Below, one piece after another: positions 25,940-48,599 of a stretch of 58,865 bases of DNA (the first letter of the stretch is position 1; each line of letters starts with the position of its first letter). The stretch is from Nanobdellota archaeon (GTDB taxonomy: Archaea; Nanobdellota; Nanobdellia; Woesearchaeales; GW2011-AR9). The notes under the pieces are model-generated. The model did not search any database and was not told where the DNA came from. It saw only the letters and a list, made by a program, of their open reading frames with translations. The stretch covers positions 1 to 58,865 of the forward strand of contig JBBSWB010000041.1 of assembly GCA_038046465.1 (NCBI GenBank), in the 5' to 3' direction. A program made the position numbers and the translations under genes.

Positions 25940-25996
25940 TTTTAGGTTTCAAAATTCATTAGATATATAAACATTTACTTAAAAAAATAAAATGAT

Positions 25997-26118
25997 AAAA
26001 ATCACCTTGGCCGCTCGTTCGGCCTATCCTAGCCAATAACTTTCGAAGGGATAGGACTTAATTTATTACTAAAGTATACATTCCCTCACTCGCCTCTTGG
26101 CCTAGGCGGTGATTTTTT
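25997..26118 (-). repeat. Structured hairpin repeat, copy A (family A/B/C; strand given relative to copy C)
   Basis: The reverse complement aligns along its whole length with 44606..44726. Stems are AAAAAATCACC/GGTGATTTTT, CCTAGGCC/GGCCAAGG and CCTATCC/GGATAGG. Confidence 0.7.
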
Positions 26119-26137
26119 ATGAAAATGAGATCAACTT

Positions 26138-26659
26138 ATGACTTTTGCTTTTGGACACCTGACTGGTGCTTGGCTGTTTGGAAAGATGACAGAATGGTTC
26201 AGCCGCAAAAAGATTCCTCTTTCGGCGTGGTTATATCTGCTCCTGGGGGGAATAATCTCTGATATTGATTTCTTATTAGACTGGACTTTCAAAACAGAAG
26301 CGCATCGGACCTTTACCCATAGTTTAATTTTTTTAATGGTCTCCTGCTTCCTTGTTTATGTGGTTTTGTTTTTATTGAACAAATCTAAAGAAGCTAAATT
26401 ATTTTCGTTGATGTTTGGTTCCGGAATAGTTGTTCATATTGTATTAGACATGCTGTTTTCCCAGGGAGTGCCTTTATTTTGGCCTAATTTATTACATTTC
26501 TCGTTTCAAGGACTTAGTTATTTTGACCCGGCCACCCCTTCTTGTTTAAACGGCTCTTACGAAACAATAAAACATTCTTTAAGATTAGCAGTGGTAGATA
26601 TGGCCCTAGGAACCGCTTGGGTGTTTTATTTTGCCCTTAGAAAACGAATTAAGTTTTGA
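26138..26659 (+). CDS. Membrane-bound metal-dependent hydrolase-like protein (YdjM/DUF457-like)
   Basis: Multi-TM protein, 173 aa, with conserved His positions (FGHLTG, HRTFTHS). Confidence 0.5.
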   Translation: MTFAFGHLTGAWLFGKMTEWFSRKKIPLSAWLYLLLGGIISDIDFLLDWTFKTEAHRTFTHSLIFLMVSCFLVYVVLFLLNKSKEAKLFSLMFGSGIVVHIVLDMLFSQGVPLFWPNLLHFSFQGLSYFDPATPSCLNGSYETIKHSLRLAVVDMALGTAWVFYFALRKRIKF

Positions 26660-26680
26660 GTTTATTAAATCGGCGGCTCT

Positions 26681-26828
26681 GTAGAAAAAGTCTAGGCCTT
26701 TCACTCGTTCAGTTCTAAAAAGCGTAACCGTTAAGAAAAAGAATAATTTAAAGATGGAACTGAACCTGTGTTAAATCTTACGAATTAAAATTACTCGTTC
26801 AAATCTTGGCCTAGACGACTTTTTCTAC
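26681..26828 (-). repeat. Structured hairpin repeat, copy B (divergent, longer member of family A/B/C)
   Basis: Stems are GTAGAAAAAG/CTTTTTCTAC, TCTAGGCC/GGCCTAGA and GGTTCAGTTC/GAACTGAAC. It shares TCTTGGCCTAG.CG and CTCGTTC motifs with copy A. Confidence 0.6.
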
Positions 26829-26879
26829 TAAACTAATTTAGACTAAACATTTATATACATAAATTTCTTCACTAACCTT

Positions 26880-27497
26880 GTGCCAGCAAAAAAAATTCCT
26901 TCGGACCGATTGATCCAAATTGTTAGCCCTATGCGGGTTAAGTATAAAGACGTCTTCAGCATAAAAGCATTCTATGAAGCTTTACACGAATGGTTATTAG
27001 AATACGAATGGAAAGATTTGGAAGAGGGATCAGATAAATATGAACGCTTTTATGGAGAGAGAGTCCGGCAAGACCGCTCCAAAGAAATTTGGATTAGGTG
27101 GCGTACTTGTAAAAAAGCTCCGGACGCAGATTATCTAACTTATTATTTGGATTTTGATTTTCACAGCCCAGCCATCGTAACGATGGAAGTGATTAAAGAA
27201 GGTAAAAAATTAAAGACTAATAAAGGAGAACTTGAACTCACTATAAGAGCCTTCATCGAAGAGAATTATAAAGAAACTATGGAAGGGCATCCATTTCTAA
27301 AACATTTTAAAGATTTATTTTCAAAAAGAATCTACAACAAAACTATTGTAGAACGAAAGAAAGAATTATACCGGGAAGTTTATGCCCTGCAGACCTTTAT
27401 CAAACAATGGTTCAAGTTGAAGAGATACCAGCCTTACGAAGATACAAAAACGCTGTTTGCCAGTGAAGCTTATCCTTCGCATTTGAAAGAGAAATAG
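26880..27497 (+). CDS. Hypothetical protein (205 aa)
   Basis: Intact ORF starting at a GTG about 25 nt downstream of a TATA-like ATTTATATA. An alternative ATG lies at 26931. Confidence 0.5.
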   Translation: MPAKKIPSDRLIQIVSPMRVKYKDVFSIKAFYEALHEWLLEYEWKDLEEGSDKYERFYGERVRQDRSKEIWIRWRTCKKAPDADYLTYYLDFDFHSPAIVTMEVIKEGKKLKTNKGELELTIRAFIEENYKETMEGHPFLKHFKDLFSKRIYNKTIVERKKELYREVYALQTFIKQWFKLKRYQPYEDTKTLFASEAYPSHLKEK

Positions 27498-27552
27498 ATA
27501 TTAAAAAACACAACAACAACAAAGTTTTTAAAGTTATAAAGTCAAGATAAAA

Positions 27553-28116
27553 TTGCCCATGGAAAGAGAAGTAAAAAATTTAAATATTCTCAGTCAGTTT
27601 TGCGAAGATTTCTGCACGATTATTAACAAACATTGCAAATATATTGTGGTGTCAGGATTTGTTGCTATTGCTTCAGGAAGAACCAGAGGCACAGAAGATA
27701 TCGATTTAATCATGGAAAGAGTTGATTTTAACAGATTTAAAACAATCTTTGCAGACCTGAAACGGAGCGGATTTGTTTGCATGCAATCAGCTGACGTGAA
27801 AGAGATTTATGATTATTTAACAGAAAACCTCTCGGTAAGATTTACTCGAAAAAATAAACCTTTACCGGAGATGGAAGTAAAATTTGCCAAGGACGAATTA
27901 GACAATTACCAATTAAATACTAAAGTAAAATTAGAACTTACCGGCTTAGGAGTATGGTTCAGTAATATCAACGTGAACCTCGCTTTCAAAGAAGAACTTT
28001 TAAAAAGCCCAAAAGATTTAGAAGATGCTAAACATTTAAGAATTGTTTACTCTGAATTGGTTAACGAAAAAGAAATTAATGAAATAAAAAAAATGATTAA
28101 ACGGTTAAGATTATGA
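27553..28116 (+). CDS. Minimal nucleotidyltransferase-fold protein (AbiEii/DUF-type NTase-like)
   Basis: GFVAIASGRTRGTEDIDLIM fits the G[SG]-x(9-13)-D.D polymerase-beta-like NTase signature. Confidence 0.5.
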   Translation: MPMEREVKNLNILSQFCEDFCTIINKHCKYIVVSGFVAIASGRTRGTEDIDLIMERVDFNRFKTIFADLKRSGFVCMQSADVKEIYDYLTENLSVRFTRKNKPLPEMEVKFAKDELDNYQLNTKVKLELTGLGVWFSNINVNLAFKEELLKSPKDLEDAKHLRIVYSELVNEKEINEIKKMIKRLRL

Positions 28117-28349
28117 GAGAATCCCATTTAGGTCAAATAACAAGATGGGCTAATTTTGTTAGAAGCAATCCGGAATGGAGAGAGGCCCACAATGAGTTTA
28201 TTAATGCTCTTTTTGATAGCCACGAAAAGATTATTAAAACATTGCTTAAAACTAAGCATGGAAAAAAGAAAATAATCAAACTATACGGGATTAAAAACAC
28301 CAAGGGATATGATTGGTTAAATCACAAAAAAACTAAAAAAATGCATTAA
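28113..28349 (+). CDS. Hypothetical small basic protein (78 aa), translationally coupled to 27553..28116
   Basis: 4-nt ATGA overlap with the upstream gene. Confidence 0.45.
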   Translation: MRESHLGQITRWANFVRSNPEWREAHNEFINALFDSHEKIIKTLLKTKHGKKKIIKLYGIKNTKGYDWLNHKKTKKMH

Positions 28350-28411
28350 TAATTTAAAAAATCAAAAGAAGTTTAAAAAAAGAAATTAAAAAATAAAAAA
28401 AAGTTTTTTCT

Positions 28412-29152
28412 TTATTCTACGTCAAGGAAGAAATAGTAGGTTTCCGTACCACCTACTCCCGTCGTATTTACTGGCACTATTAACTCATAATCAACCAGAG
28501 TTAAGTTCCTAAAATCCCTTTCGTCGGCATCAACAGCTACCCCAAAGGCAAAATCAATTTCCTGTGCTGGCGAAGCTGTATCAGTAAAAACGCCACTTTT
28601 GTAAATGCTGGTATTCAGAACGCACCCCGCACATTGCGCCGTGCCGGTATCCTCGTATGCTCTTAAACCTACTGCGGGCACACTAGTTACTGTCGCAATG
28701 GTGGCAGTACCAGTAAATACCGACGTTGCTGAATCAACATCCGCTGTTGAAAATCCCCAAGCGCTGTCAGCGTTTCCTGCAGATGCTGCAAGAAGATTGC
28801 TAAAATCAAAAGCTGAATCGGGCGCGGCAAAAACACTCTTGATCTGGCTATTCGTTACAGAGCCAAAGTCATAGAGGACATCAGAACCGAATCCTAATTT
28901 TAAAGCACTGGTTACCTGACCAAAATAACCCGCCCACTTACCTGTGCTCTTTGTTGCAGTCACGTTTAGCTGGGTTACGTTGCCTGCCCGGGCATTATGC
29001 GAACCGGCGCCCGTATTGGTTAAACGACCGTTAGCATACGCCGTTACAGAACCCCCAGAAACTGCATCGCTTTTATCAACTGCAACAGCCATAAAAGCTA
29101 ACATTAAAAAAACTATCGTAGTCAAAACTAATCCCGCCATCTTTTTTTCCAT
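28412..29152 (-). CDS. Secreted protein carrying the module shared with 33110..34123 and 35007..36599
   Basis: Signal peptide (..LMLAFMAVAV/DKS), G/S/T/A-rich composition, and a C-terminal ..DYELIVPVN....TYYFFLDVE motif. Visibly more GC-rich than neighbours. Confidence 0.65.
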   Translation of the reverse strand: MEKKMAGLVLTTIVFLMLAFMAVAVDKSDAVSGGSVTAYANGRLTNTGAGSHNARAGNVTQLNVTATKSTGKWAGYFGQVTSALKLGFGSDVLYDFGSVTNSQIKSVFAAPDSAFDFSNLLAASAGNADSAWGFSTADVDSATSVFTGTATIATVTSVPAVGLRAYEDTGTAQCAGCVLNTSIYKSGVFTDTASPAQEIDFAFGVAVDADERDFRNLTLVDYELIVPVNTTGVGGTETYYFFLDVE

Positions 29153-29627
29153 ACTCTCACCCTCTCCTTATTTTTTATATTTTTATTTACTCGCCTTACT
29201 TTTTACTTTTAGTTTGTTTTTTATTTTGTGTTCAGTTTAGTAAGGTAAGTTAGCGTAAAACAGAAGAGCAATATAAACATTTATTTGATGAGTTATATTC
29301 TTTAAAAAACCGCTAATCGGTCCTATTTTTTACAAATCAATTTACCCATTATATATATTAAAATTTAATGAATGCGTTGTCTATTTTAATGATGATTTGA
29401 ATTGATTATTTAATTATTAATTATTTTAAGAATATACTTTTAACATAAAAAAACATTTTTATCATTTAACTATTTTTGTCATTTTTATTAGTTAAAATAC
29501 TTTTATAATAAATAACACAAAACAACTTTTGTTATAGAAATACTAAAGAGTAGAAAAGGTTATAATCACCTTACTTTCAAACAGTAGTTGCCCCATAGTT
29601 GCTCTATAAAAATATTAATGGTTAAAA

Positions 29628-29852
29628 ATGAAAAGAGTTAATATCAGTTTAAGAAAAGATGTGCATTCCCAGGCAAAAATAATTTGTATTCTAAAAAATG
29701 TTCATCTAAATAAATATCTTGAACTATGCATTGAAAAAGCAATAAAAGAAGATCAAAAAATTTTACAGGTGCTTAAGATAGAAAACAACTTCTTTAAAAT
29801 AGAAAAAAACCCGATCGAGATTGAAAAGAGCTCAAATAAAGAAGAAGGATAA
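29628..29852 (+). CDS. Ribbon-helix-helix (CopG-like) small protein
   Basis: N-terminal MKRVNISLRKDVHSQAK has a beta-strand-plus-helices pattern typical of RHH regulators. Confidence 0.4.
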   Translation: MKRVNISLRKDVHSQAKIICILKNVHLNKYLELCIEKAIKEDQKILQVLKIENNFFKIEKNPIEIEKSSNKEEG

Positions 29853-29918
29853 GCGAGTACTTTAATTTTAGTTTAATAAAATCAAATGGTGATGGGATGT
29901 TAAAACTGTGGCAAGTAC

Positions 29919-32858
<2,940 letters not shown>

Positions 32859-32867
32859 AAAATACTA

Positions 32868-33039
32868 AGAGCCTATCCCGTTAGGGCGTTCAGCAGCATA
32901 AGGTCGAACGTCTTAAATTTACACAGCAAGGGCGTCACGGGGGGTTGTCCCATACGGGGACGCAGCCCTAGCAAATTCACAATGCGATGCGTTCGAATCT
33001 GCTGAACGCCTCTACTTTTTACCTATTGGGATAGGCTCT
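32868..33039 (+). ncRNA. Rod-like GC-rich structured element D (candidate ncRNA, strand uncertain)
   Basis: Nested perfect stems AGAGCCTATCCC/GGGATAGGCTCT (12 bp), GGCGTTCAGCAG/CTGCTGAACGCC (12 bp), TCGAACG/CGTTCGA and GGGCGTC/GACGC. The core is far more GC-rich than the flanks. Confidence 0.4.
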
Positions 33040-33109
33040 AAACAAATAACTACAAATAACTAAAGCGATAAATAATAAAAGCAATAATATTAAAATGATT
33101 TATGTTTAA

Positions 33110-34123
33110 ATGATTTTTTCCAATAATCCTAAAATTCCGAGAAAAAAAATATTTACAGCAACTGCATTACTTATATTTTTATTATTATTGTTACTATCTG
33201 CGTTCTCAGTTATTAGTTTTATTGACTTAGCCGTAAGTTCAACCAGTATTACTTTTAGCAACAACAACCCCATAGAAGGAGAACTGGTAAATATCAGCGC
33301 AATGATTAGCAACCTTGGCAATGAAACTGCAACAAACGCAACCCTTCAATATTTAGATGATAAAAAAGAAATAAGTAATGTTACCATTAATGTACCTAAT
33401 TTCTCTTCAGTTGCTGCCTCCCTGTTTTGGCCCGCAGAAATCGGCCCTAACAATATTAGCATTATAATCGACCCCGATAATAGTATAGCCGAATCTGACG
33501 AAACAAACAACTATGCTTCCAAGAAAATAGCTATAAATGGATATCATACTTATTTTGGAAAAGCTGCAGGTTATCTTGCTTTAGGAATAAACTCAAAATT
33601 TTTGTTTCAGGCAAAACTACCAGCATGTAATATTCTCATGGCAGATACGGACAGCAACGTTGATTTTAGTTCTCTTCAGGCCATAGGAAAGAAAAAAAAT
33701 GCAGGAAACTCCAACAGGGATTTTGAAGAAATAGATACACTATTAGGAATGGCTACTTTTTCTGATTCTGTTACTAATCTTTTTAGCGTGAAGCATGGGG
33801 GAAAAATGGTTCCAAAACAAGTAGAAACATTTACTATTTTTGGCACAACCATTCCTGATGTTCCGGTTATAAACAGTACAAATAGTTCTGCTTTTCTAAC
33901 AGGAATATTGTGGGACATTTCCGATGATACTGTGGGAAAGAACGGAGAGTTTGATATAATTAATCGTGAAGATTTAATCTTTGTTACAAAAATAAACCCT
34001 TCACAACAGGGGCAGTATGGCGTTTATGATTACGAAATTAAAATTCCTGCTCTCTTGCGGGAATATAAGCCCGGCAACCCAACGGTTGATTTTTTTATTG
34101 ATATTGATTCTTGTCTTTCATAA
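33110..34123 (+). CDS. Membrane-anchored surface protein with CARDB-like domain and the shared C-terminal module
   Basis: N-terminal TM helix, then a CARDB-like segment (P.EGE.V.ISA.ISN.GN..A....L..... ..E.DE.NN). The C-terminal YDYEIKIPA......VDFFIDIDSC resembles 28412..29152 and 35007..36599. Confidence 0.65.
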   Translation: MIFSNNPKIPRKKIFTATALLIFLLLLLLSAFSVISFIDLAVSSTSITFSNNNPIEGELVNISAMISNLGNETATNATLQYLDDKKEISNVTINVPNFSSVAASLFWPAEIGPNNISIIIDPDNSIAESDETNNYASKKIAINGYHTYFGKAAGYLALGINSKFLFQAKLPACNILMADTDSNVDFSSLQAIGKKKNAGNSNRDFEEIDTLLGMATFSDSVTNLFSVKHGGKMVPKQVETFTIFGTTIPDVPVINSTNSSAFLTGILWDISDDTVGKNGEFDIINREDLIFVTKINPSQQGQYGVYDYEIKIPALLREYKPGNPTVDFFIDIDSCLS

Positions 34124-34286
34124 AAATTAGTTCAAGCACCACTAATTTTTTTCTTGTAAAAAGTTTTTAATTTCTTTCTTTTTATTAAGACATGCTCGGG
34201 GCATGAGTTTCAGCGGTGATTTAATTAATTTAAAGTAGAACTAATTCAAAACAAGAGCATAAATTTAAAGAATAAATTTCTTAACT

Positions 34287-34508
34287 TCACTTTCTTCTTT
34301 TAACTTTCTTAGATTTAACTCTAGACTTAGCTAATTTAATTAATTTTTTAACTTTAGAATGCTTTCCTTTACCAGAAGCTTTTCTGCTCTTCTTCCTTAA
34401 ACTATTGCTGCGAGTTGATTTCTTTTTAATAGATTTCTTTTTAACTGCTTTCTTTTTAGTAGCTTTTCTCTTAACTACTTTTCTTCGAATACTCTTTTTT
34501 TTAGCCAT
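34287..34508 (-). CDS. Lysine/arginine-rich small basic protein (73 aa)
   Basis: Uninterrupted ORF, more than half K/R. No Shine-Dalgarno is visible, so it could be a low-complexity artefact. Confidence 0.35.
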   Translation of the reverse strand: MAKKKSIRRKVVKRKATKKKAVKKKSIKKKSTRSNSLRKKSRKASGKGKHSKVKKLIKLAKSRVKSKKVKRRK

Positions 34509-34540
34509 CTAGTTTTAACTCTTTTATTTTTTAACGTTTT

Positions 34541-34790
34541 AAAGACTGGACTCGGTGACATAGTGCCTTAAACAACTCCCTTCATCAACTTAACCTTTAG
34601 GGTTATTTTAAAGGTGATCTACGTCGCTTCACAGACAAGCTTAACAAGCACAGGTTTCGTGCAGTGAGTTATAGTCCAGACACCGCATTAATGGCGAGCA
34701 CTTGTAAGAGGCTGCTATGATGGCATCCTTTTCAGGACAACCGAAATGTCCGCTTTTCTACTAACACCAGGAAAGTAGATTAAGTTAAAA
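34541..34790. ncRNA. GC-enriched intergenic block, candidate structured RNA of unknown class
   Basis: About 250 nt with clearly higher GC than the flanks and no ORF. Local helices include CTGGACT/AGTCCAG, GGACA/TGTCC, GCAC/GTGC and GCTT/AAGC. Confidence 0.3.
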
Positions 34791-35006
34791 GAAGTCTTTC
34801 TTTAAATATTTGTCGTATCATCAAAATAATGATTACAATAATCGCAATAAAGTAGTTCTTCCTTTCTTGCGCAAAGTTGTTTTGTCTTGGTTGATTTTTT
34901 AAATTTAACACTTTGTATGTAATAGGTTAACATGCCCGGCTTTTAAATGAAATGTTATTTTTGCCCAATCGGAGCAAAAAACGAGCCCCGTTCCAGAGCT
35001 GACCTA

Positions 35007-36599
35007 TTACATACGCTTTTTTAATTTTACACTTTTTCTAAATTTTCCTACCCTGAGCCCGATTAAAAATAAAATTAGGAATATGGTAATTACCAATAAT
35101 AATAGCAATACTGGGATTCCAAAAAGGTAGAATGTTCTTTTATCCATCAGCGCAGCCATGCCGACAAGAGCTTCTGAAAGCGGCGGACCGGGTTCAACGA
35201 CAGTAAAAGATTCAGTTGCAGTCGTAAAGGAGCTGCCATAAATTACCTTTAATGCGTATAGGTATTGCCCAACAGTAATATTTTGACTAAGTGGAATGAT
35301 TTTGGAGAAAGAGACTTGATTCCACATGGTGATTCTTTCTTCTTCGTCGTAGATTATGTTGTTGTTCATGTCCATAATTAAGTGAATTAAGGTTACATCT
35401 GCAGGATAAGTTTTTTTAAGATTAAGCAAGGTAATAATTGCCTTAAGCTCTTCTCCGGGAAAATAGGTTTTCTTCGGCAAGTCCAGGCTGGCATCAAAAA
35501 TAACTTCTTTAGGTTCGACTTCCAATATGATATATGCGGCTTTACTTATGCTTCTTAAATCATTTTCAGCAAAGAATACCATTGCTCCAGTATAAATTCC
35601 GGGCTTAATATTTAAGTAAGGATTAAAAATAAAAGTAATTTCTTTTTCTCGTCCCTGTGGCAAATAAAAGGCATTGGGAGAAACTGTGAGTAAAGCCGAT
35701 AAAGCAGTAGTTGTTTTAATTAACAGGTCTGCTTTCCCAGTATTTAGCACCCGGATTTTTTTTTCTAAACGTTCTCCTTCAGTTAAGGCAACTTTAATTA
35801 ACTCTTCGCTTAATTCAAACGACATTTCTAGACGCGCTTCTTTTTTAATCTCGCCCGCTCCGCCAACAGAAATATAAACTGGCACTGGAACGGATACGGC
35901 AGCCTCGCAATCGCTAAAAAAATAATAAGTAACAAAACTTCCATTGACGGGCACCAGCATTTGATAATCATGGGTTTTATTATCAAAACCTTTTGTGTCC
36001 AAGGAAATATGGCTTACAAAAACTAAAGAATTGGAAATATTCAACAAGCCAAGATCAAAGGTAGTATTGCCCGGAGAACCGAATACTTTAGTATATGACG
36101 TAGGAATATTAGCAATGGCAGAAGAACCAACCGTAAATGTTTTTGTATTTGCAAAAATCTGCGACCCTGATTCTAAATGGCTGGCATTAAGCTGGAGATA
36201 ATGATCAATAGCTTCCTTGCGGCCAGCAGAAATATCCTTAAAAGCAATATTGCCATTAGTGCTTGCGTAAATCTCTTCGCCCACGCAGGGAAAAGTGACA
36301 TTAAGTTCAGTTATATTCCCTTTCCGGGCGAGGCTGGAAGGAGTTTGATTAAACGAGGAATCCTCAAAAATTTCTCCGTAGAAGCCCTGCCAGTAGCCGG
36401 ATTCTTCCGTTAGGGAAAGATTAACTTCTTCCACCGCCCCAGCGTTTGAAACCCTAGATGTTGCTCCTCCAGTGACATTGCTAACGGGCGTGAAGGAAAT
36501 AAGAAAAAAAATTAGCAGGAAGAAAACAAGCAGAAGAAACAAGATAATATAATTTATGTTTCTTGATATTACCTTTTTTAATATTGTTTTTTTTAACAA
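35007..36599 (-). CDS. Surface protein: N-terminal TM/signal, shared module, beta-rich domain, C-terminal TM anchor
   Basis: 530 aa. Contains ..SGYWQGFYGEIF.. and ..YQMLVPVNGSFVTYYFFSDCE motifs paralogous to 28412..29152. The C-terminal TM helix is followed by basic residues. Confidence 0.7.
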   Translation of the reverse strand: MLKKTILKKVISRNINYIILFLLLVFFLLIFFLISFTPVSNVTGGATSRVSNAGAVEEVNLSLTEESGYWQGFYGEIFEDSSFNQTPSSLARKGNITELNVTFPCVGEEIYASTNGNIAFKDISAGRKEAIDHYLQLNASHLESGSQIFANTKTFTVGSSAIANIPTSYTKVFGSPGNTTFDLGLLNISNSLVFVSHISLDTKGFDNKTHDYQMLVPVNGSFVTYYFFSDCEAAVSVPVPVYISVGGAGEIKKEARLEMSFELSEELIKVALTEGERLEKKIRVLNTGKADLLIKTTTALSALLTVSPNAFYLPQGREKEITFIFNPYLNIKPGIYTGAMVFFAENDLRSISKAAYIILEVEPKEVIFDASLDLPKKTYFPGEELKAIITLLNLKKTYPADVTLIHLIMDMNNNIIYDEEERITMWNQVSFSKIIPLSQNITVGQYLYALKVIYGSSFTTATESFTVVEPGPPLSEALVGMAALMDKRTFYLFGIPVLLLLLVITIFLILFLIGLRVGKFRKSVKLKKRM

Positions 36600-36606
36600 T
36601 TCCTCT

Positions 36607-38256
36607 TTACCTCTTCTTTCTTATTGATAGTATTAGTTTTATTACAATTAAAATAATGATAACTAACACTAACAGCTTATAATTAAATGTTTTAAACGCA
36701 AAATCAAATTCCCGAGTCATCGACTTTAACAGGATGTTTTCTCTTTCTCCATATCTAACCCGCGCCGTTACAGTTGGATTGTCTTCAATATCCATTTCCT
36801 CCAGAAGCGCTTTAATCTTAAACAAATTCTTCTGCCCGGGCTTAATTTTTTGCTGTTCAGCGCCCAAAGTCACTTTCTCGCTGGCAATAATTAAATCAAC
36901 AATCTCAGCATCAGCATAGACATCTTTCTCGCCTTCATTTTTTACGATTAATTCAAATCGTTTCGTCCCTTTATTGTAAACCAGGCTTTGAATGGATATT
37001 TTTGACGAATCCTCAACGGCAACAACATCCAAATTCAAGGTCTTCGCCAATAGTTTAGTTAAGGAATTAGCGCTTTCTCCGAAGATAATTTTGCTCTCAA
37101 CTATTAGATTTTTATCAAGATAAGGCGTTAAGTCAAGGCTATAAACTTTAGTCAAAGTATCGCCTTCGTTAAGAAAGAAGGCTTTTTCATCACCAACTTC
37201 CGCAATGGCAGTCCCGTCTGCTTTAATTTGATGAGACAATGCCTGAGCATAAGTATAAACCGCGCCTTTATTTTTATAACTGACTTCCAGCTGCCTTGAA
37301 AGAGTATTGTAATGAACTGCTTCAATATCAATTTCCGAGTCATATTCCGGCAGAGGAAAGACATCAAGAGCGTAGATCTGCGAATTTCTTCCTTGCCCAT
37401 ACTTAAGAAGAATTTTTATTCCCGTATCTTCTCGTATTCTTTTGGCGTTGGCAAATAGGTCGTACCCAATAACAATCCCAGCTCTTACATCGGTATCCCG
37501 GATAAAATCTATAACTGGTTGGGGAACGTTGCTTGTTCCAATAAACAGGGCCGGGAATTCATTATTAAAAAAACCCAGTTCCAGAGTTTCTCCATCTGTA
37601 AGCAAGACCTGTTTTGTTGGCTTTTTATTAATAAATTTCTTTACAATCTCAATATTGTCTTGGTATCGGTCGCCTTTATTTATAATTAAAGGATTTAGAA
37701 CGCCGAGTTCTTCCTTAACTGCCCTGTTAAGATGACCATAAAAGAGAATATTATCTGCCGAAGCAGACAAAAAAGAAAAGAGGACATCAACATTTTCAGC
37801 ATCTGCAAAAAGAACAAAAGAATTTGTAAGCAAGGCATAAGGAGCTACTGAAATAGCATCATAGCCCAAACTGCCGTCAATCACTATAAAATTAGCAATG
37901 CCCTTCTCATCAGCTGCCTTCTTAGCAAACTCTAAATTGGTCTTTTGCGCATCTAAAGAGAGAAATTTTTCTACTTTAAAGCCCTGTTTTTCTAGCTGAA
38001 GCTGATAACCAAAAATAAGAGGTTCTTTAGATTCAATGAGCAAAATATCAACAGCCCCTCTGTTAAGAACCTCTTCGATCAACTGCAGACCTTGCGTTTC
38101 TTTAGCAACATAATGCGCATCTAAACCGTTCAACTTGGCATAAAGAATTCCTGTATATATATCCCGCCAGTCTTTTGAATTAATTACGACTTGATCCGCA
38201 GCACTGACAATAGGAAGAAGCAATAAGAATAATAACAATAAAAAATACCTTTTCAT
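36607..38256 (-). CDS. Surface protein with three alpha/beta repeats (cell-wall-binding-repeat-2-like), beta-rich domains and C-terminal TM anchor
   Basis: 549 aa with signal peptide LLLLPIVSA. Three similar segments of about 100 aa (VVINSKDW.., FIVIDGSLGYDAI.., VLLTDGETL..). Terminal TM helix plus KKR. Confidence 0.65.
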   Translation of the reverse strand: MKRYFLLLLFLLLLPIVSAADQVVINSKDWRDIYTGILYAKLNGLDAHYVAKETQGLQLIEEVLNRGAVDILLIESKEPLIFGYQLQLEKQGFKVEKFLSLDAQKTNLEFAKKAADEKGIANFIVIDGSLGYDAISVAPYALLTNSFVLFADAENVDVLFSFLSASADNILFYGHLNRAVKEELGVLNPLIINKGDRYQDNIEIVKKFINKKPTKQVLLTDGETLELGFFNNEFPALFIGTSNVPQPVIDFIRDTDVRAGIVIGYDLFANAKRIREDTGIKILLKYGQGRNSQIYALDVFPLPEYDSEIDIEAVHYNTLSRQLEVSYKNKGAVYTYAQALSHQIKADGTAIAEVGDEKAFFLNEGDTLTKVYSLDLTPYLDKNLIVESKIIFGESANSLTKLLAKTLNLDVVAVEDSSKISIQSLVYNKGTKRFELIVKNEGEKDVYADAEIVDLIIASEKVTLGAEQQKIKPGQKNLFKIKALLEEMDIEDNPTVTARVRYGERENILLKSMTREFDFAFKTFNYKLLVLVIIILIVIKLILSIRKKR

Positions 38257-38367
38257 AATCTTTCTTTTAAGTGTTTGTTTTATAATAATTTGTTGCTTTC
38301 ATTATATAAAATATAAGCCATAAATCCAAAACTTTAATAAACAAACCCTCCACTTTCTAATTAATTT

Positions 38368-38486
38368 GCCCCAGTAGCTTAGTGGCTATAGCACCTGACT
38401 TGTAGCCAACTATCTGCTATGTTTCCAACGAAATATAAGCATAGTAAGATATCAGGAGATCGGGAGTTCAACTCTCCCCTGGGGCT
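38368..38486 (+). tRNA. tRNA-Thr (anticodon TGT) with a canonical 46-nt intron at 37/38 (38405..38450)
   Basis: GCCCCAG TA GCTT AGTGGCTA TAGC A CCTGA CTTGTA [46 nt] A TCAGG AGATC GGGAG TTCAACT CTCCC CTGGGGC T. Central BHB helix CTTG/TAAG with 3-nt bulges. Confidence 0.9.
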
Positions 38487-38513
38487 TCCTTTTTTAATTT
38501 GTTTTTCTTTCAT

Positions 38514-38633
38514 GGCTTGTCCAGAATGAAAAACATTTGTATACTGGGGCACGGCGCGATTATAAATTTACTTCGTAAATTTATGCGCCTCCATTGGCAC
38601 CAGTATACAAATTAAGGGTATTCTAGACAAGCC
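38514..38633. other. 120-nt rod-like imperfect palindrome E immediately downstream of tRNA-Thr
   Basis: Nested arms are GGCTTGTC/GACAAGCC, AGAAT/ATTCT, TTTGTATACTGG/CCAGTATACAAA, GGCGC/GCGCC and ATAAATTTAC/GTAAATTTAT. Confidence 0.5.
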
Positions 38634-38732
38634 TTTCTTTCAGAAATTATTATAAACACCAAAACTACCATAATCAATAAAAAGATTAAAAGTAAACAAA
38701 ATTTAAAAAAGGAATAAAAAGAGGTTAAAAAG

Positions 38733-39485
38733 ATGAGACTTAAAAACAAGATTGCAATTATTACCGGTTCCCAACGGGGCATTGGCTTGGGCATTGCTGA
38801 AGAGATGGCCAAGGAAGGCGCTAATGTAGTTATCTCTGATCTCGATCAAAAAGATTGCGAAAAAGTCTGCCAGAGTTTAGAGAAAAAATATAAAATAAAA
38901 ACTTTAGCAGTAAAATGCGATGTTTCCAAGAAAAGTGAAATTGATGATTTAATAGAACAAACCATAACTAAATTCAAGCGCATTGATATTTTAGTCAATA
39001 ATGCCGGTATCGTCCGCTTTGGATCATTGCTGCAAAAGACGGAAAAAGAATGGGATGCCACTTTAGACATTAATTTGAAAAGTGTGTTCCTGTGCACCCA
39101 AGCTGCGGCCAAATATATGGTTAAACAAAAAAGCGGAAAAATAATTTCCTTGGCCAGTATTGCTGGCATGGTTGGTTTTGAAAATGTTGCTGATTATTGC
39201 GCATCGAAAGGAGGGATCATTAACCTCACTAAAGAATTAGCCTTAGAGTTAGCAAAATATAATATCAATGTTAATGCTATTGCTCCGGGAATTATTGAAA
39301 CCAAGATGACTGAAGGCATGCTTAAAGACGCAAAAAGCCGGGAAAATTTACTGGCGCAAACTCCGTTAAGAAGATTTGGCCAGCCGCAAGATATTGGTAA
39401 AGCCGCCGTATTTTTAGCGTCGGAAGAAGCTAATTTTATTACCGGACACACTTTAGTAATCGACGGGGGCTGGTTAGCCCGCTGA
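38733..39485 (+). CDS. Short-chain dehydrogenase/reductase (3-oxoacyl-ACP reductase FabG-like)
   Basis: TGS.RGIG cofactor motif, NNAG, and the S...Y...K catalytic triad (YCASK). Confidence 0.9.
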   Translation: MRLKNKIAIITGSQRGIGLGIAEEMAKEGANVVISDLDQKDCEKVCQSLEKKYKIKTLAVKCDVSKKSEIDDLIEQTITKFKRIDILVNNAGIVRFGSLLQKTEKEWDATLDINLKSVFLCTQAAAKYMVKQKSGKIISLASIAGMVGFENVADYCASKGGIINLTKELALELAKYNINVNAIAPGIIETKMTEGMLKDAKSRENLLAQTPLRRFGQPQDIGKAAVFLASEEANFITGHTLVIDGGWLAR

Positions 39486-39517
39486 ACGAAGAACAGAACA
39501 GACATTCATGAACACAA

Positions 39518-41116
39518 ATGAGATTAAATTTACTTATCGGAGGGAAAGCTGGACAGGGGATTAATAAGTTAGCAGAAATAATCTCTTCGTCATTAGTGCG
39601 TGCCGGCTGGTATGTATTTAATTACAAAGATTACCAAAGCGCAATCAAAGGCGGGCATAATTTTAATTTAATCAGTATCTCCGACCAAAATCTAGCTGCT
39701 TATGAAGAAGATTTAGATCTGCTGTTTGCGTTTGATGCACAGACTTATGACGAACATAAAAAAAATATCAGTAAAAAAACTATTCTAGCAACTGCAGATT
39801 CAGAATTAAATAAAAAAGTAGGCGGATTTTTTTTAGATTTATCCCAACTGGGTAAATTTGGCAACATGGCTTTTGCTGGATTTTTATTTAAGTGTTTAGG
39901 ATTAGATAAAAAATTTCTGCTGGAAGAAATAGAAAAAGAATTCAAACAAAAAGAGATTGTTATCGAGAATAAAAAAATTATTGAACAGTTTTATGCTCCT
40001 GAATACTCAGTGGATTTAAAACTGCCGGAACCACAGCAAAATGAACCACAACACCAACAAAAAAAAGAACTGCCGGGATACTCTCACTTATCCGGATCAG
40101 AAGCAATTTCTCAAGCAGCAGTGGAAGCAGGTTTAGAAATTTATTTTGGTTATCCCATGACTCCCTCTACCGGCGTATTGTCTTCCTTAGCTTTGAAACA
40201 AAAAGAAAACAAAGATTTATTTGTGTTTACCCCTGAAAATGAAATTGCTGTAATCAATTCCGCTTTAGGAGCTAGTTTTGCAGGAAGAAAAGTAATGGTC
40301 GGTACTTCTGGCGGAGGATTTGATTTGATGAGTGAAGCCATGAGTTTACAGGGGATGGTTGAGTTGCCTTTAGTGATTCATTTATCTCAACGGGCCGGAC
40401 CAGGAACGGGAGTTCCAACTTATTCTGGACAAGGTGATTTAAATGCGGCTATCTATGCCGGGCATGGTGAATTTCCTCGGTTAGTGGTTGCTCCAGGAGA
40501 TGCACAAGAAGCTTATGAAAAAACAATTGAAGCATTTTATCTTGCAGAAAAATTTAAGCTCCTGTCGATAATTTTAACGGATAAACATCTTGCTGAATCT
40601 GGTTATACCGACCAAATAAAAAAATCTTCCGTGGTTGTTCCTAAACGAGAAGATCTACTTAGCCAAGGCGTGGTTAAGAAAAATAGTTATGAACACGATT
40701 TATTTGGAAACACTACCGAAATCGCCGCAGAAATTAAAGAGAATACCGACCGAAGAATTGCTAAAACCAAACTAGTGGAAAAAGAAACTCAAAAATTTAC
40801 GCGCTACAAATTTTACGGAACAGGAAAAAATTTATTGATTGGCTTTGGCTCTACCAAAGGAGGCATTCTTGATGCTCTCCCTAATCTTCCTGAGTTTAGT
40901 TATTTACATTTAATTTATCTTGAACCTTTCCCTTCCGAAATTATTGCTTACCTACAGAAAGCAAAAAAAATATTGGTTATTGAACAAAATTCCACTGGAC
41001 AATTAGCCGATCTGCTCAGTAAACAATTAGCAGTTACTATTCCTGAACATAATAGAATCCTAAAGTATGATGGGCGCCCGTTCACGGCAAAAGATTTGTT
41101 AGGGAGAATAAAATAA
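39518..41116 (+). CDS. 2-oxoacid:ferredoxin oxidoreductase alpha subunit (gamma-alpha fusion, two-subunit type)
   Basis: N-terminal gamma-like GGKAGQGI domain followed by an alpha domain (GYPMTPST...), with the beta subunit directly downstream. Confidence 0.85.
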   Translation: MRLNLLIGGKAGQGINKLAEIISSSLVRAGWYVFNYKDYQSAIKGGHNFNLISISDQNLAAYEEDLDLLFAFDAQTYDEHKKNISKKTILATADSELNKKVGGFFLDLSQLGKFGNMAFAGFLFKCLGLDKKFLLEEIEKEFKQKEIVIENKKIIEQFYAPEYSVDLKLPEPQQNEPQHQQKKELPGYSHLSGSEAISQAAVEAGLEIYFGYPMTPSTGVLSSLALKQKENKDLFVFTPENEIAVINSALGASFAGRKVMVGTSGGGFDLMSEAMSLQGMVELPLVIHLSQRAGPGTGVPTYSGQGDLNAAIYAGHGEFPRLVVAPGDAQEAYEKTIEAFYLAEKFKLLSIILTDKHLAESGYTDQIKKSSVVVPKREDLLSQGVVKKNSYEHDLFGNTTEIAAEIKENTDRRIAKTKLVEKETQKFTRYKFYGTGKNLLIGFGSTKGGILDALPNLPEFSYLHLIYLEPFPSEIIAYLQKAKKILVIEQNSTGQLADLLSKQLAVTIPEHNRILKYDGRPFTAKDLLGRIK

Positions 41117-41139
41117 AGACCAACCTGAGTGAAATAAAA

Positions 41140-41937
41140 ATGTTAGAAACTAAAAATAAAATTACCTGGTGCCCAGGATGTCCCAATTATCTGATTAAGC
41201 AGGCCATCCAAACGGCCATAACTAATCTAATTCAACAAGGTTACCCTAAGGAAAGTTTTGTAGTAGTTACTGATATTGGCTGCAGCAGTAAAATCTATGA
41301 TTATTTAGACCTCTCTGCTTTTTATGGTCTGCATGGGCGGGCGATTCCCACTGGATTTGGAATTAAAGTCGGTAATCCTAAATTAAATGTGCTGGTTATT
41401 GCCGGAGATGGAGGCACCTATAATGAAGGGCTTGATCATTTTATTCACGCCTGTAGATATAATATTAATCTGACTCTGTTAGTCCACAACAATGGTGCGT
41501 TTTCTTTAACTACCGGACAAGCTTCAGCAACCACTAAAAAAGGTTTTATAGAAAAAACCCATCCGTTTGGCGTGCAAGAAGATGCTCTTAACCCGTTAAG
41601 TTTAGCCTTAGAATCGGGGGCTAGTTTTGTAGCCAGAACTTCGGCTTTAGATTTAAATCAAATGGCTGCTATCATTGAGCAAGGCATAAAACATCCGGGC
41701 TTTTCATTTATAGACATTTTACAGCCGTGTTTAATTTACAATAATTTTTCAGAAGTTTTGAAAAAAAATAGTTATATACTAAAAAACCCTTTACCGTTAG
41801 AAAAAGCACTGGTTGAAGCTAGAAAAAGCGCGTTTGCTTTGGAAAATCCGGCTAAAGAAAAAATAGCTCTGGGCGTTTTCTTTCAAGAAAAAAAGCCAAC
41901 TTTTGAAGAGAAATATTTTCAAAACCGAAATATTTAA
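41140..41937 (+). CDS. 2-oxoacid:ferredoxin oxidoreductase beta subunit (TPP-binding)
   Basis: WCPGCPNY and GDGG..NEG thiamine-diphosphate motifs. Confidence 0.88.
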   Translation: MLETKNKITWCPGCPNYLIKQAIQTAITNLIQQGYPKESFVVVTDIGCSSKIYDYLDLSAFYGLHGRAIPTGFGIKVGNPKLNVLVIAGDGGTYNEGLDHFIHACRYNINLTLLVHNNGAFSLTTGQASATTKKGFIEKTHPFGVQEDALNPLSLALESGASFVARTSALDLNQMAAIIEQGIKHPGFSFIDILQPCLIYNNFSEVLKKNSYILKNPLPLEKALVEARKSAFALENPAKEKIALGVFFQEKKPTFEEKYFQNRNI

Positions 41938-42000
41938 AAACAAAAAGCCTTTTTAACCAATAAGATAAATGATAGGTGTTAATCATTCTGGGTGTTAATT

Positions 42001-42630
42001 ATGGAAGAAAGCTTAAAAACTGGTACAACCACTGTTGGTTTAGTTTGTAAAGATGGAATCGTCTTAGCTGCTGATAAAAGAGCAACAGCTGGAGATATGA
42101 TCGTTGATAAAAGAGCAGAAAAAGTGCATATCATTTCTGATGATTTTGCTTTGACTATTGCCGGAGGAGTTTCTGACGCACAATTGCTGATCAAATTAAT
42201 CCGCGCAGAACTTAAGTTAAAAGAAGTATACACGGGTAAAAGACCAACTGCAAAAGAAGCAGCAAATTTATTGGGCGGATTAGTGTATAATGCTATCCGC
42301 AGACCTTCCATGCTGCCGGGAATCGTTCATTTTCTGTTAGCAGGTAAAGATATTCAAGGACTACACTTATACGATTTATTCCCTGACGGAAGTATTACTC
42401 ATATAAGAGATTACATTTCTTCCGGTTCAGGATCCGTTTTCGCTTACGGAGTATTAGAAACCCATTATAAAAAAGATATGACTGTAACTGAAGCAGTTGA
42501 GGTAGCTGTAAAAGCTATTAATACTGCCTTGCAAAGAGATTGCAATACGGGCAATGGAATAGATGTAATGGTTATTAATGAGAAGGAAATCAAGCGGGTG
42601 ATGCACAAAGAATTAGTGTATAATCTGTAA
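42001..42630 (+). CDS. psmB: Proteasome beta subunit
   Basis: Short propeptide, then TGTTTVGLVCKDGIVLAADKRAT with the Thr1 nucleophile. ATG at 42001 is preceded by GGTG; the track start is a GTG at 41992. Confidence 0.93.
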   Translation: MEESLKTGTTTVGLVCKDGIVLAADKRATAGDMIVDKRAEKVHIISDDFALTIAGGVSDAQLLIKLIRAELKLKEVYTGKRPTAKEAANLLGGLVYNAIRRPSMLPGIVHFLLAGKDIQGLHLYDLFPDGSITHIRDYISSGSGSVFAYGVLETHYKKDMTVTEAVEVAVKAINTALQRDCNTGNGIDVMVINEKEIKRVMHKELVYNL

Positions 42631-42711
42631 GAATGAATAAATTCTAAACAATTAATCTTCTTTATTATTACCAATAATGTACAGTAAATTATCACGAGGA
42701 AATACTTAACT

Positions 42712-44601
42712 ATGCCAGACATATTAAAAGAAATAATAAAAATCCTTCCTAAAGGCAAAATCTCTGATGCTGCTTTTGAAGGAGCAAACATTGTACTTTA
42801 TACTAAAGACCCAGAATATTTCATGGATAATAATGGCACCATTAGGGATGCCGTAAAAGAATTTAGAAAAAGAATTGAACTGCGTTCTGATCCGGCTTTG
42901 TGTTTAGAAGTCGAGAAAGCAGAAAAACTGTTAAAAGAACTTATTCCCGAAGAAGCGGGAGCTCAAGAATTTATCTTTGACCCGCCGCGCTCACAGGTTA
43001 TTATTCATGCCGATAAACCCGGATTAGTTATTGGAAAACAGGGAGAAATCTTAAGAGAAATACGTGCTAAAACTTTTTGGGTGCCGTTAATAAAACGCTT
43101 GCCTCCGATCAGATCAAAATTAATTGAAAGTATCCGTTCCGTTCTGTATGAACATGCTGATGAAAGAAAAAAGTTCCTGGATAAAACCGGACACCGGATT
43201 TATGACGGCTGGATTAGATCAAAAAAACACGAATGGGTTAGATTATCCTGTTTAGGTGCATCCCGGCAAGTTGGAAGAACCTGTTTCTTAATTCAAACTC
43301 CTGAATCACGAGTGTTAATTGATTGCGGTATTGACGCTAGCCAGGAAGGCACGGAAGCTTATCCTTTTTTAGATGCCCCTGAATTTAACATCAGCGAATT
43401 AGATGCAGTTATCGTTACTCACTCCCACTTAGATCATTCTGGTTTGATTCCTTACTTGTTTAAATTTGGATATACTGGACCAGTATATTGTACTCTTCCT
43501 ACTCGGGATGTTATGGCCCTGTTGCAATTAGATATGGTTAAAATTCAGCGCAGTGAAGGTAAAGAACCAATTTATACTAGTGAAGAAGTTCGACAAATGG
43601 TTTTACATACCATCTGCTTAGAGTATGAAGAAGTGACTGATATCACTCCTGATGTCCGCTTAACTTTTTATGGTGCGGGACACGTCATTGGAAGTTCCAT
43701 TGTGCATTTAAACATTGGAAATGGATTACATAATTTTGCTTATACTGGTGATTTAAAATATGCTCGAACTAATGTCTTAGAACCAGGTAATACTCAATTT
43801 CCCCGTCTGGAAACTTTAATGATTGAATCTACTTATGGTGGAAAAGAAAATGTTATGGCTGAAAAAGAAGCCGATGATTACATGATTAAAGTTATCCAAG
43901 AAACTTTTGCGCGGGGCGGGAAAGTATTGATGCCTGTATTAGGCTCAGGAAGAGCCCAGGAAGTAATGATTATTGTAGAAAGACTGATGCGGGAAAAATT
44001 AATCCCTGATGCGCCCGTATACCTTGATGGGATGTTATGGGACGTTACGGCTATTCATACCGCTTATCCAGAATATTTAAATCGAAACATTCGCGAACAG
44101 ATTTTCCATAAAGAAAATAATCCTTTCTTATCCGGAATATTCAAACAAGTTGGCTCTCCTAAAGAAAGAAAACAGATCATGTTAGAAGAAGGGTCTTGTT
44201 TAATCTTGGCAACTTCAGGAATGCTTACCGGCGGACCTTCCGTCGAATACCTTAAAGGATTGGGAGAAGGAAAAAAACATTCTTTGATCTTTAGCTGTTA
44301 TCAACCTCCCGGAAGTATGGGTTACCGCATTAGAAACGGAGAAAAAGAGATTATGGTCCGAGAAGAAGGTAAAAACCAGGTGCTTAAAATAAATATGGAA
44401 GTGCACAAAGTAGAAATTACCAACCACTCTGACCGAAAACAATTGATGAATTATGTAAAAAGATGTAATCCTCAGCCTAAAAAAGTCATTGTAGTGCACG
44501 GAGAAAGTTCAAGATGCTTAGATTTAGCTTCTTCGATACATAAGGTATACCGCATTGAAACGGTTGCTCCTAAAAACCTGGAAGTTATCAGGATTAAATA
44601 G
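42712..44601 (+). CDS. aCPSF1: KH-domain beta-CASP metallo-beta-lactamase ribonuclease
   Basis: N-terminal KH-like region, HSHLDHSG metallo-beta-lactamase motif and beta-CASP motifs; 629 aa, typical of archaeal CPSF1. Confidence 0.93.
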   Translation: MPDILKEIIKILPKGKISDAAFEGANIVLYTKDPEYFMDNNGTIRDAVKEFRKRIELRSDPALCLEVEKAEKLLKELIPEEAGAQEFIFDPPRSQVIIHADKPGLVIGKQGEILREIRAKTFWVPLIKRLPPIRSKLIESIRSVLYEHADERKKFLDKTGHRIYDGWIRSKKHEWVRLSCLGASRQVGRTCFLIQTPESRVLIDCGIDASQEGTEAYPFLDAPEFNISELDAVIVTHSHLDHSGLIPYLFKFGYTGPVYCTLPTRDVMALLQLDMVKIQRSEGKEPIYTSEEVRQMVLHTICLEYEEVTDITPDVRLTFYGAGHVIGSSIVHLNIGNGLHNFAYTGDLKYARTNVLEPGNTQFPRLETLMIESTYGGKENVMAEKEADDYMIKVIQETFARGGKVLMPVLGSGRAQEVMIIVERLMREKLIPDAPVYLDGMLWDVTAIHTAYPEYLNRNIREQIFHKENNPFLSGIFKQVGSPKERKQIMLEEGSCLILATSGMLTGGPSVEYLKGLGEGKKHSLIFSCYQPPGSMGYRIRNGEKEIMVREEGKNQVLKINMEVHKVEITNHSDRKQLMNYVKRCNPQPKKVIVVHGESSRCLDLASSIHKVYRIETVAPKNLEVIRIK

Positions 44602-44605
44602 TTCT

Positions 44606-44726
44606 AAAAGCCACCCGCCTGGCCAAGATGAGCGCGAGAGAATGTTTATTTTAATCAAAAATTAATTCCTATCCCTTTAAATTTTAATTGCAAGGATAGG
44701 TCGAGCGCTCGGCCAGGGTGGCTTTT
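44606..44726 (+). repeat. Structured hairpin repeat, copy C (family A/B/C)
   Basis: Stems are AAAAGCCACCC/GGGTGGCTTTT, CCTGGCC/GGCCAGG, GAGCGC/GCGCTC and CCTATCC/GGATAGG. Homologous to the reverse complement of 25997..26118. Confidence 0.7.
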
Positions 44727-44819
44727 GCGACCAGCTTAGACAGACTAATTCTACCTAAATATTTATAAAACCGATTAGGATTTTAATGACGTTAGTGCCA
44801 GTTGTTCACTCACGTTCAC

Positions 44820-44964
44820 GCCAGCGTCGCATAATTCGGTACTTTGCATAAGCAAAGGTTTACGCGAAGCGAAAAATTGCGCAGGTCTTGAAAACCTGTT
44901 CCTTCGGGAATTCTCGGTTCAAAGCCAGCAATCTAAATTGCTGATGAAATTCCGAGCGCTGGCG
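44820..44964 (+). tRNA. tRNA-Ser (anticodon TGA) with two introns: about 35 nt in the D-loop (about 44842..44876) and 27 nt in the T-loop at 59/60 (44924..44950)
   Basis: GCCAGCG TC GCA TAATTCGGTA [35] T TGC G CAGGT CTTGAAA ACCTG, long variable arm TTCC-TTCG-GGAA, then CTCGG TTCAAA [27] T CCGAG CGCTGGC G. Perfect hBHBh' at the T-loop junction. Confidence 0.8.
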
Positions 44965-44984
44965 CTTTTTATTTTCTAAAAGAA

Positions 44985-48143: not shown

Positions 48144-48523
48144 ATGAAAAGGTGTTAAAAATGAAAAACAAAGGCGCATTTTGTGAAACTTATGGTATCA
48201 CTATAGAAAATTGTATCCTCGAATATTTGTTAGAAAATCAGGATTTAGATATTGCTATCGGCGATATGGCGAAAGAACTAGATGTAAGCAAACCAAAAGC
48301 ATACGAAGTAATCAAAGAGTTTGAAGAAAAGGAATATATTATTAAATCTAGAGTTGTTGGAAAAACCCAACTGTACAAATTGAATAAAACAAATATTAGA
48401 GTAAAAATCTTTTTGAGAAACTTTGATGAATGTTTGCAGCTAGTGATTGAAGAACATAGTAATAAAAGTTCTACCATCAGTGCTCCAATGAGTATCGGAG
48501 TGGCATCGGCAAGATCATTTTGA
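48140..48523 (+). CDS. Winged-helix DNA-binding protein (127 aa)
   Basis: IGDMAKELDVSKPKAYEVIKEFEEKEYIIKSRVVGKTQLYKLN is a wHTH pattern. Confidence 0.55.
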   Translation: MNEKVLKMKNKGAFCETYGITIENCILEYLLENQDLDIAIGDMAKELDVSKPKAYEVIKEFEEKEYIIKSRVVGKTQLYKLNKTNIRVKIFLRNFDECLQLVIEEHSNKSSTISAPMSIGVASARSF

Positions 48524-48530
48524 TTTCACA

Positions 48531-48548: not shown

Positions 48549-48599
48549 CCACAGAGAAATAATTTCCCTGGGCGCGACTCAGCATTCACTCACGTTCAC

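Follow-up and report, generated by a model that had tools for sequence, protein, structure and literature searches.

The window analysed here comprises 58,865 nt of a contig from a Nanobdellota archaeon (JBBSWB010000041.1) and contains three related, hairpin-forming elements, A, B and C, which very probably belong to one family of MITEs (miniature transposable elements with inverted repeats). Element A (25992–26125) is given on the minus strand, on which it can be aligned with C and with intact copies elsewhere, and lies between the divergent genes for an Obg-like GTPase and for YdjM. Element B (26675–26834, minus strand) lies between YdjM and the next gene, and element C (44606–44745, plus strand) is located directly 3' of the aCPSF1 stop codon. 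An initial annotation, made from the sequence alone, had already placed A and B on either side of YdjM, with A in a divergent gap, and C behind aCPSF1, and this gene context is correct. It had delimited the hairpins at 25997–26118 (A), 26681–26828 (B) and 44606–44726 (C); the hairpins stand, and the elements extend slightly further, the hairpin of C being followed by a decayed right-end remnant (44727–44745).

The reverse complement of A can be aligned with C at 74% identity over 121 nt, in line with the three quarters previously estimated by eye, and the pair constitutes the longest inverted repeat of the window. When B is read in the orientation of A, it shows the same ends and the same CTAGGCCAAGA/GGCC core. 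A profile made from family members finds exactly three copies, A, B and C, in the 58.9-kb window, with E-values of 9e-30 for A and 5e-26 for C (match 44599–44745). Compared with dinucleotide-shuffled versions, each of the three has the more stable fold on either strand (z −3.4 to −5.2), and they are devoid of coding capacity, the longest stop-free stretch amounting to at most 35 aa. With the intact copies at loci L130, L175 and L191, A shares 78–79% identity over 123–124 nt and C shares 85% over 114 nt. B belongs to another subfamily; the closest related genome has, at another locus (L097 6723–6879), a copy with which it shares 87% identity over 157 nt. B is also nearly intact. One of its terminal inverted repeats (TIRs; 26675–26692, plus strand, GGCTCTGTAGAAAAAGTC) agrees with the family consensus at 18 of 18 positions and equals the end of the roughly 900-bp IS5-family elements at L245, L264 and L272; in the other (26817–26834, plus strand, GACTTTTTCTACTAAACT) the inner 12 bases are perfect and the outer 6 are similar to CTAAGCC, a variant that is common. 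Decay has left A and C with only the inner part of the TIR.

Comparison with related genomes revealed sites that are empty. The gene order GTPase (minus strand)/YdjM/205-aa gene is kept in L039, L022, L007 and L030, where the gaps measure about 50 nt and hold no element, and it is precisely the two gaps containing A and B that are longer in the window, by about 145 and 165 bases. Site A is empty in L039, L022, L007 and L030, and site B in L039, L022, L007 and L008. Since the ancestral gene order exists without the elements, YdjM was not brought in by A or B, and A–YdjM–B does not form a cassette. Insertion A has come to lie behind the shared TATA region and ahead of the YdjM start codon, insertion B behind the YdjM stop codon and ahead of the promoter of the next gene. 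Within 25940–26137, A parts the YdjM ATG from the TATA region that relatives share with the GTPase gene. The junction TTTTTTATGAAAA, about 20–25 nt upstream of the ATG, could serve as a replacement TATA box, and the T-run at the decayed end of A would help to form this candidate YdjM promoter. In L030, the gap that separates YdjM from the next gene holds a tRNA-like sequence (about 790–870).

For site C, a search with the aCPSF1 protein returned 44 related loci, nearly all from Woesearchaeota or Nanoarchaeota metagenome-assembled genomes (MAGs), the closest being 97% identical. Among these loci, an element follows the gene only in the closest relative, L001; in most others the tRNA-Ser promoter comes straight after the stop codon, with nothing between. 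As most aCPSF1 relatives lack an element at this site, C is an insertion. The copy in L001 has the architecture of C with different P3 and P4 stems (the helices described below) and is accompanied by a perfect 9-bp direct repeat, TAATTCTAC. Two genomes with 97% identical aCPSF1 carry different subfamilies at one site (L001 6012–6132 and window 44606–44745), with the P3 sequences GGCACC in L001 vs GAGCGC in C and the P4 sequences CTTTTTC vs CCTATCC. Either there were two insertions at this site, or recombination with a further copy exchanged the interior. In L030, aCPSF1 is followed by a GC-rich stretch (5170–5370) that is apparently structured.

Ends, copies and candidate partner of the element family

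Family members are non-coding and 125–165 bp in size. Intact relatives have 18-bp TIRs, with GGCTCTGTAGAAAAAGTC at one end and GAGATTTTCTACAGAGCC, also given as (GAGAT)TTTCTACAGAGCC, at the other. They are flanked by target-site duplications of 9 bp: at least 7 of the 9 flanking bases match in 30 of 64 copies, many of them at all nine positions, as opposed to 0.25% in a control with mismatched flanks, paired across copies. The copies at L130 and L175, 85% identical to C, combine full TIRs with the duplication TTTGTTACT.

The dispersed hairpin family proposed in the initial annotation extends well beyond the window. A search pattern made from the ends of B (GTAGAAAAAGTC ... GACTTTTTCT) matches 85 genomic stretches, and with strict end patterns two Woesearchaeota genomes yield at least 15 copies apiece. 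The 18-mer TIR alone recovers at least 116 stretches, nearly all archaeal among the matches listed. With a pattern for the A/C core we found intact relatives in about 20 archaeal contigs and A/C-type copies in 39 metagenome contigs, and the closest relative, CAZKNU01, harbours at least 7 copies. Other MITE subfamilies with identical TIRs have unrelated interiors. Relative to tandem neighbour genes, 10 copies are in sense and 18 in antisense orientation, a bias that is not significant. Viral contigs gave one chance match only, and a literature search for the TIR string yielded nothing other than chance matches to primers.

Several side observations concern the distribution of the copies. A simple hairpin scan of the relatives' loci uncovered further copies, four of them at L019 (4811–9101). 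These four represent two TIR types and occupy about 4.3 kb immediately upstream of the genes for the proteasome subunit and aCPSF1. Each is intergenic, their orientation is mixed, and a mechanical listing of open reading frames (ORFs) reads through them, giving similar spurious peptides. At L144 (1019–1779), two MITE copies about 450 bp apart have one common outer 9-bp duplication, CATAATTCC; the pair and the intervening DNA seem to have moved as a single unit. MAG records named 'uncultured Methanosarcinales archaeon' (CAZKNU01, CAYJTE01, CAYIEF01 and others) contain aCPSF1 and MITEs typical of Woesearchaeota/Nanoarchaeota, which makes the taxon name seem unreliable. Several contigs of CAYJTE01 stop about 40–110 nt past a TIR, a pattern to be expected if assembly is interrupted by an element with many copies.

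Among the 18-mer matches listed are elements of about 900 bp with the same two ends as the MITEs (L245, L272, L264 and L210). The element at L272 is bordered by a 9/9 target-site duplication. These four encode transposases of 272–283 aa, and the Thorarchaeota relatives L275 and L237 have transposases of about 304 aa. Pfam DDE_Tnp_1 matches both transposases tested, those of L245 and L275. The NCBIfam IS5-family model NF033579 scores 169 bits with L275, above its cut-off of 140, and 118 bits with L245, which is under the cut-off and yet the best match. Compared with bacterial and archaeal plasmid-borne IS5 transposases, among those listed, the archaeal partner transposases are about 26–30% identical. 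Insertion sequences of the IS5 family with the ends of the MITE family are common in Woesearchaeota-like archaea. At L210 such an insertion sequence and an A/C-type MITE adjoin each other, the MITE having a 9/9 duplication, and the genome CAYIEF01 possesses both the insertion sequence (L272) and MITEs (L056, L218).

Similar small elements of about 135–145 bp occur in many Bacteria, with ends (GAGGCTGTAGAAAAAGTC) that have 14 bases in common with the archaeal TIR. Examples are L047, L048, L068, L101, L113 (a complete Rhodanobacter genome), L116 (5024–6775) and L126 (2167–3935). The matching bacterial full-length elements encode IS1182-family transposases, and the duplication seemingly comprises 3 bp (GTT/AAC). 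Given the resemblance of these IS1182-type ends to the archaeal TIR, the end motif appears to be common to related transposase families across domains. An IS1182-type transposase was considered as the archaeal partner and rejected: tblastn found no such transposase in the archaeal loci, and the IS5-type elements of about 900 bp fit.

We therefore estimate at roughly nine in ten the probability that A, B and C are copies of a non-coding MITE family moved by an IS5-family insertion sequence. The initial annotation had recognised no MITE that fits, a statement refuted by the 18-bp TIRs, the 9-bp duplications of intact relatives, the IS5-family ends and the empty sites. The elements have every sequence-level property by which prokaryotic MITEs are recognised in a review (PMC10969869), namely a small non-coding size, TIRs, a duplication of fixed length, a high copy number in one genome with the copies at unrelated loci, an autonomous element that shares their ends, and insertion polymorphism. 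The IS5-type transposase found with the same ends would be the mover of these MITEs. According to this model, a DDE transposase of the IS5 family, encoded elsewhere on an insertion sequence of about 900 bp, would recognise the 18-bp TIRs (GGCTCTGTAGAAAAAGTC ... TTTCTACAGAGCC) and put the non-coding element of about 125–165 bp into intergenic DNA, duplicating 9 bp of the target. A and C would then be old insertions, A in the YdjM promoter gap and C in the gap between aCPSF1 and tRNA-Ser. Their decayed outer ends mark them as relics of such insertions that are presumably no longer mobile, and B may still be mobilisable.

A number of observations weigh against this reading. The outer TIR bases of both A and C are no longer recognisable. 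The flanks of A contain a weak possible duplication, TAAAATGAT (25988–25996) and GAAAATGAG (26121–26129), with 7 of 9 matches and a 3-nt offset, and those of C one of TAGTTCT (44599–44605) and TAATTCT (44746–44752), likewise weak, with 6 of 7 matches; because both are weak and the DNA is AT-rich, they possibly arose by chance. B has no recognisable target-site duplication, with 4 of 9 flanking bases matching. Target-site duplications fade with age (PMC10969869). The window encodes no transposase, and the MITE core was found in no full-length insertion sequence: each of the 39 metagenome matches to the core with the left end is either a MITE or truncated by the end of its contig. Finally, a plain MITE model does not explain the strong covariation of the P3 and P4 helices and the strand-specific tandem G·A mismatches described below.

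The folded core and competing explanations

P1, the outermost helix of the hairpin, is the TIR itself. Proceeding inward, it is followed by the P2 helix (GGCC/GGCC), a 5-nt bulge (AAGAN), the P3 helix, an unpaired tract of about 28 nt and the hairpin P4, with all bulges on the 5' arm. The stems of the shared architecture proposed earlier are borne out, with the exception that P3, a further helix between P2 and the AT-rich tract, had been missed. In A and B, P3 holds tandem G·A mismatches, which is why it was not seen there. The P1 covariation noted in the initial annotation is real, as A and C both carry double changes relative to the family consensus AAAAAGTCGCC/GGCGACTTTTT that keep the pairing. 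A looks chimeric, with P3 from one subfamily and P4 from another.

When 28 copies are aligned without gaps, each of the 10 P3 pairs varies on both sides. The covariation score of P3 is 0.279, compared with 0.079 ± 0.009 for shuffled partners (0 of 500 shuffles reach it) and at most 0.103 for slid partners, and 87% of the P3 cells are paired vs 75.7% with shuffled and at most 44% with slid partners. One row of this alignment ('L158mod') has the consensus in columns 1–15 in place of the degenerate end of that copy; this adds no P1 variation, and the P3 columns of the row are genuine. In 76% of copies P3 forms a perfect stem of at least 6 bp, vs 3.3% for arms paired across copies, and the numbers of distinct stem sequences are 16 for P3 and 22 for P4. 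Since the copies descend from few master elements, they are not independent, and the shuffle statistics overstate the significance. Tandem 5'-GA-3'/3'-AG-5' mismatches, flanked by covarying Watson–Crick pairs, occur 33 times in P3 on the C strand, and the mirrored TC/CT arrangement does not occur (0). Likewise, purine–purine oppositions outnumber pyrimidine–pyrimidine ones (108 vs 13). The same core is also found behind a second TIR type, GTATTTGTTTAGCT, at L019 (6748–6905), with its own 9/9 duplication, CCCCAAAAA.

From the P3/P4 covariation, the one-strand tandem G·A and the second TIR type it is conceivable that the core is selected as single-stranded DNA or RNA. We consider it a tentative proposal, and rather doubtful, that the core is under selection as a folded nucleic acid with a strand-specific structure and has been carried behind at least two different transposase-recognition ends; conserved unpaired motifs such as GGCCAAGA likewise point this way. 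Such a core might be needed for mobilisation via a single-stranded or snap-back intermediate, or might have a host-tolerated role, for example as a two-way transcript end or as an insulator in the very compact DPANN genomes. Put in terms of the elements themselves, they would be MITEs whose P2–P3–P4 core also functions as a folded single strand, RNA or single-stranded DNA, either for mobilisation or because it is tolerated or selected by the host, where its role between closely spaced genes could be, for example, that of an insulator or of a transcript end. Besides the covariation of P3 and P4 (0.279 vs 0.079 with shuffled partners), the tandem G·A on one strand only and the recurrence of the core behind GTATTTGTTTAGCT, this possibility, to which we give distinctly less than even odds, draws on the fact that the decayed copies A and C each retained P1 pairing through double changes, and on a T-run after the hairpin on both strands. 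On the other hand, G·U pairs are rare (4 cells in P3), unlike in most structured RNAs, and isolated mismatches show no G·U excess (11 G·U vs 19 A·C). The orientation with respect to neighbour genes has no significant bias, no promoter is evident inside the element, and Rfam gives no match; the AT-rich tract was considered as an internal promoter and rejected, since the GC-richer subfamilies do not conserve it. The unrelated interiors of other subfamilies with the same TIRs also speak against it. The functional RNA or structure-specific DNA site favoured in the initial annotation possibly persists, and then only as an added property of the MITE core. The MITE family is ordinary selfish DNA with a hairpin core that is conserved to an unusual degree, and this core is not derived from the partner insertion sequences found here.

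That the elements are independent structured RNA genes unrelated to transposition, as first proposed, is highly improbable. Their stable folds, the covariation and conserved unpaired motifs such as GGCCAAGA would suit RNA genes, but the TIRs are held in common with transposase-bearing elements, 9 bp of target are duplicated, copies are present or absent at otherwise conserved loci, some genomes have a dozen or more of them, and they stand in either orientation to neighbour genes. No Rfam family matches at gathering thresholds, and the permissive mode returned only chance-level overlapping or neighbouring matches (E about 0.6), in agreement with the earlier statement that no known RNA family fits; the view that the elements are not simple terminators holds as well. 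Individual RNA motifs were also examined and rejected. In the pairing tables, the tandem G·A lies 2 to 7 Watson–Crick pairs from the 5-nt bulge and no 3-nt bulge adjoins it, which does not agree with a K-turn/L7Ae motif. By inspection of the sequences, the positions of the bulge and of the G·A do not fit C/D box, H/ACA, hammerhead, twister or bulge–helix–bulge motifs.

Even less probable are palindromes akin to repetitive extragenic palindromic (REP) sequences and REPINs, or derived from IS200/IS605 and moved by a single-strand transposase of the Y1 or REP-associated tyrosine transposase (RAYT) type. Long imperfect hairpins, strand asymmetry and compensated stems are what such palindromes would display. 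IS200/IS605 elements and REPINs make no target duplications and have no TIRs, but the present elements have 9-bp duplications and 18-bp TIRs identical to those of DDE elements of the IS5 family, and no Y1 transposase was seen in any locus read. Integron attC-like, structure-specific recombination sites, with A–YdjM–B as a gene cassette, can practically be dismissed, as the initial annotation had already done for attC: A and B do flank one small gene in the same orientation and have bulged bases on one arm, but the order GTPase/YdjM/next gene is kept in element-free relatives with gaps of about 50 nt, the orientation is mixed at other loci such as L019, RYYYAAC/GTTRRRY core sites are absent from the ends, and each element has its own 9-bp duplication.

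Consequences and further features of the window

In practical terms, these elements should be masked as repeats and not annotated as RNA genes or short ORFs. They would represent an IS5-type MITE family that has been very successful in genomes of about 1 Mb with little intergenic space, its insertions lying directly at promoters and gene ends, and strains could be told apart by the copies that they have or lack. Should the core be functional, the family would offer a tractable case of a transposon carrying a structured module, in which the tandem G·A and the covarying helices are clear mutable targets.

Apart from the elements, the window contains two tRNA-Ser-like genes (44790–44985 and 48520–48770) with several non-canonical introns; one of the genes has a repeated 5' segment, GCCAGCGTCGCAT. 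Both were missed by ARAGORN, including its intron option, and by Rfam. The L001 orthologue of the first gene is free of the D-arm and T-loop introns, and its 5' segment GCCAGCGTCGCATA is duplicated, which suggests that one 5' intron is retained there. A tRNA-Thr(UGU) gene with a 46-nt intron (38368–38486) was found by Rfam and by ARAGORN with the intron option, not by default ARAGORN. An exact 38-bp direct repeat (56150–56187 and 58083–58120) surrounds a 1.9-kb segment comprising a Bro-N domain gene (56219–57058, minus strand) and a gene for an unknown 207-aa protein. The first of the two repeats forms the 3' end of an ORF, and the pair looks like the attachment sites of a small integrated element. 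A tandem array of ACTTCACCAGCAGGT-like units with alternating 12- and 15-nt spacing (18988–19096) probably lies within a coding region.

Comparison with known systems

The elements are best compared with the prokaryotic MITEs that have been reviewed in PMC10969869. A Woesearchaea genome, with 105 MITEs per Mb, ranks among the most MITE-dense archaea in a recent census (PMC11602168). Like other prokaryotic MITEs, the family described here is small, non-coding, intergenic and multi-copy, has TIRs, duplications and stable stem-loops, and shares its ends with an autonomous insertion sequence. It differs in that its core is not a deletion remnant of the partner found here.

Concerning the ends, the archaeal TIR of 18 bp and the end of IS903, GGCTTTGTTGAATAAATC, agree at 14 of 18 positions, the IS903 sequence having been confirmed in plasmid records annotated as IS903. 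IS903 has 18-bp repeats and generates 9-bp duplications, and the duplication of the archaeal family is likewise 9 bp. The partner transposase matches IS5-family models; the archaeal partners, about 900 bp long, differ in that their transposases of 272–304 aa share only the 26–30% identity mentioned above with the plasmid-borne IS5 transposases listed.

In overall shape, the family resembles Correia elements, RPEs, ERIC and the Coxiella QMITE2, which are about 100–170 bp long, form one long imperfect hairpin and lie beside promoters or gene ends. For hairpin-forming MITEs, possible roles as terminators or as sources of small RNAs have been discussed (PMC10969869). The archaeal family is distinguished from these bacterial elements by the domain of life, by the transposase family, by the tandem G·A mismatches on one strand and by the bulges that are all on the 5' arm. 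With REPINs and their RAYTs and with IS200/IS605 palindromes it has in common the long hairpins, the compensated stems and the strand-specific structure. However, those palindromes depend on Y1 transposases and lack both TIRs and duplications, whereas the archaeal MITEs have both and match DDE elements. Integron attC sites are similar in that structure is conserved above sequence and extrahelical bases occupy one arm. In contrast to attC sites, the archaeal elements are without attC core sites or an integrase, show mixed orientation and a duplication for each copy, and the gene that A and B flank is ancestral at its locus.

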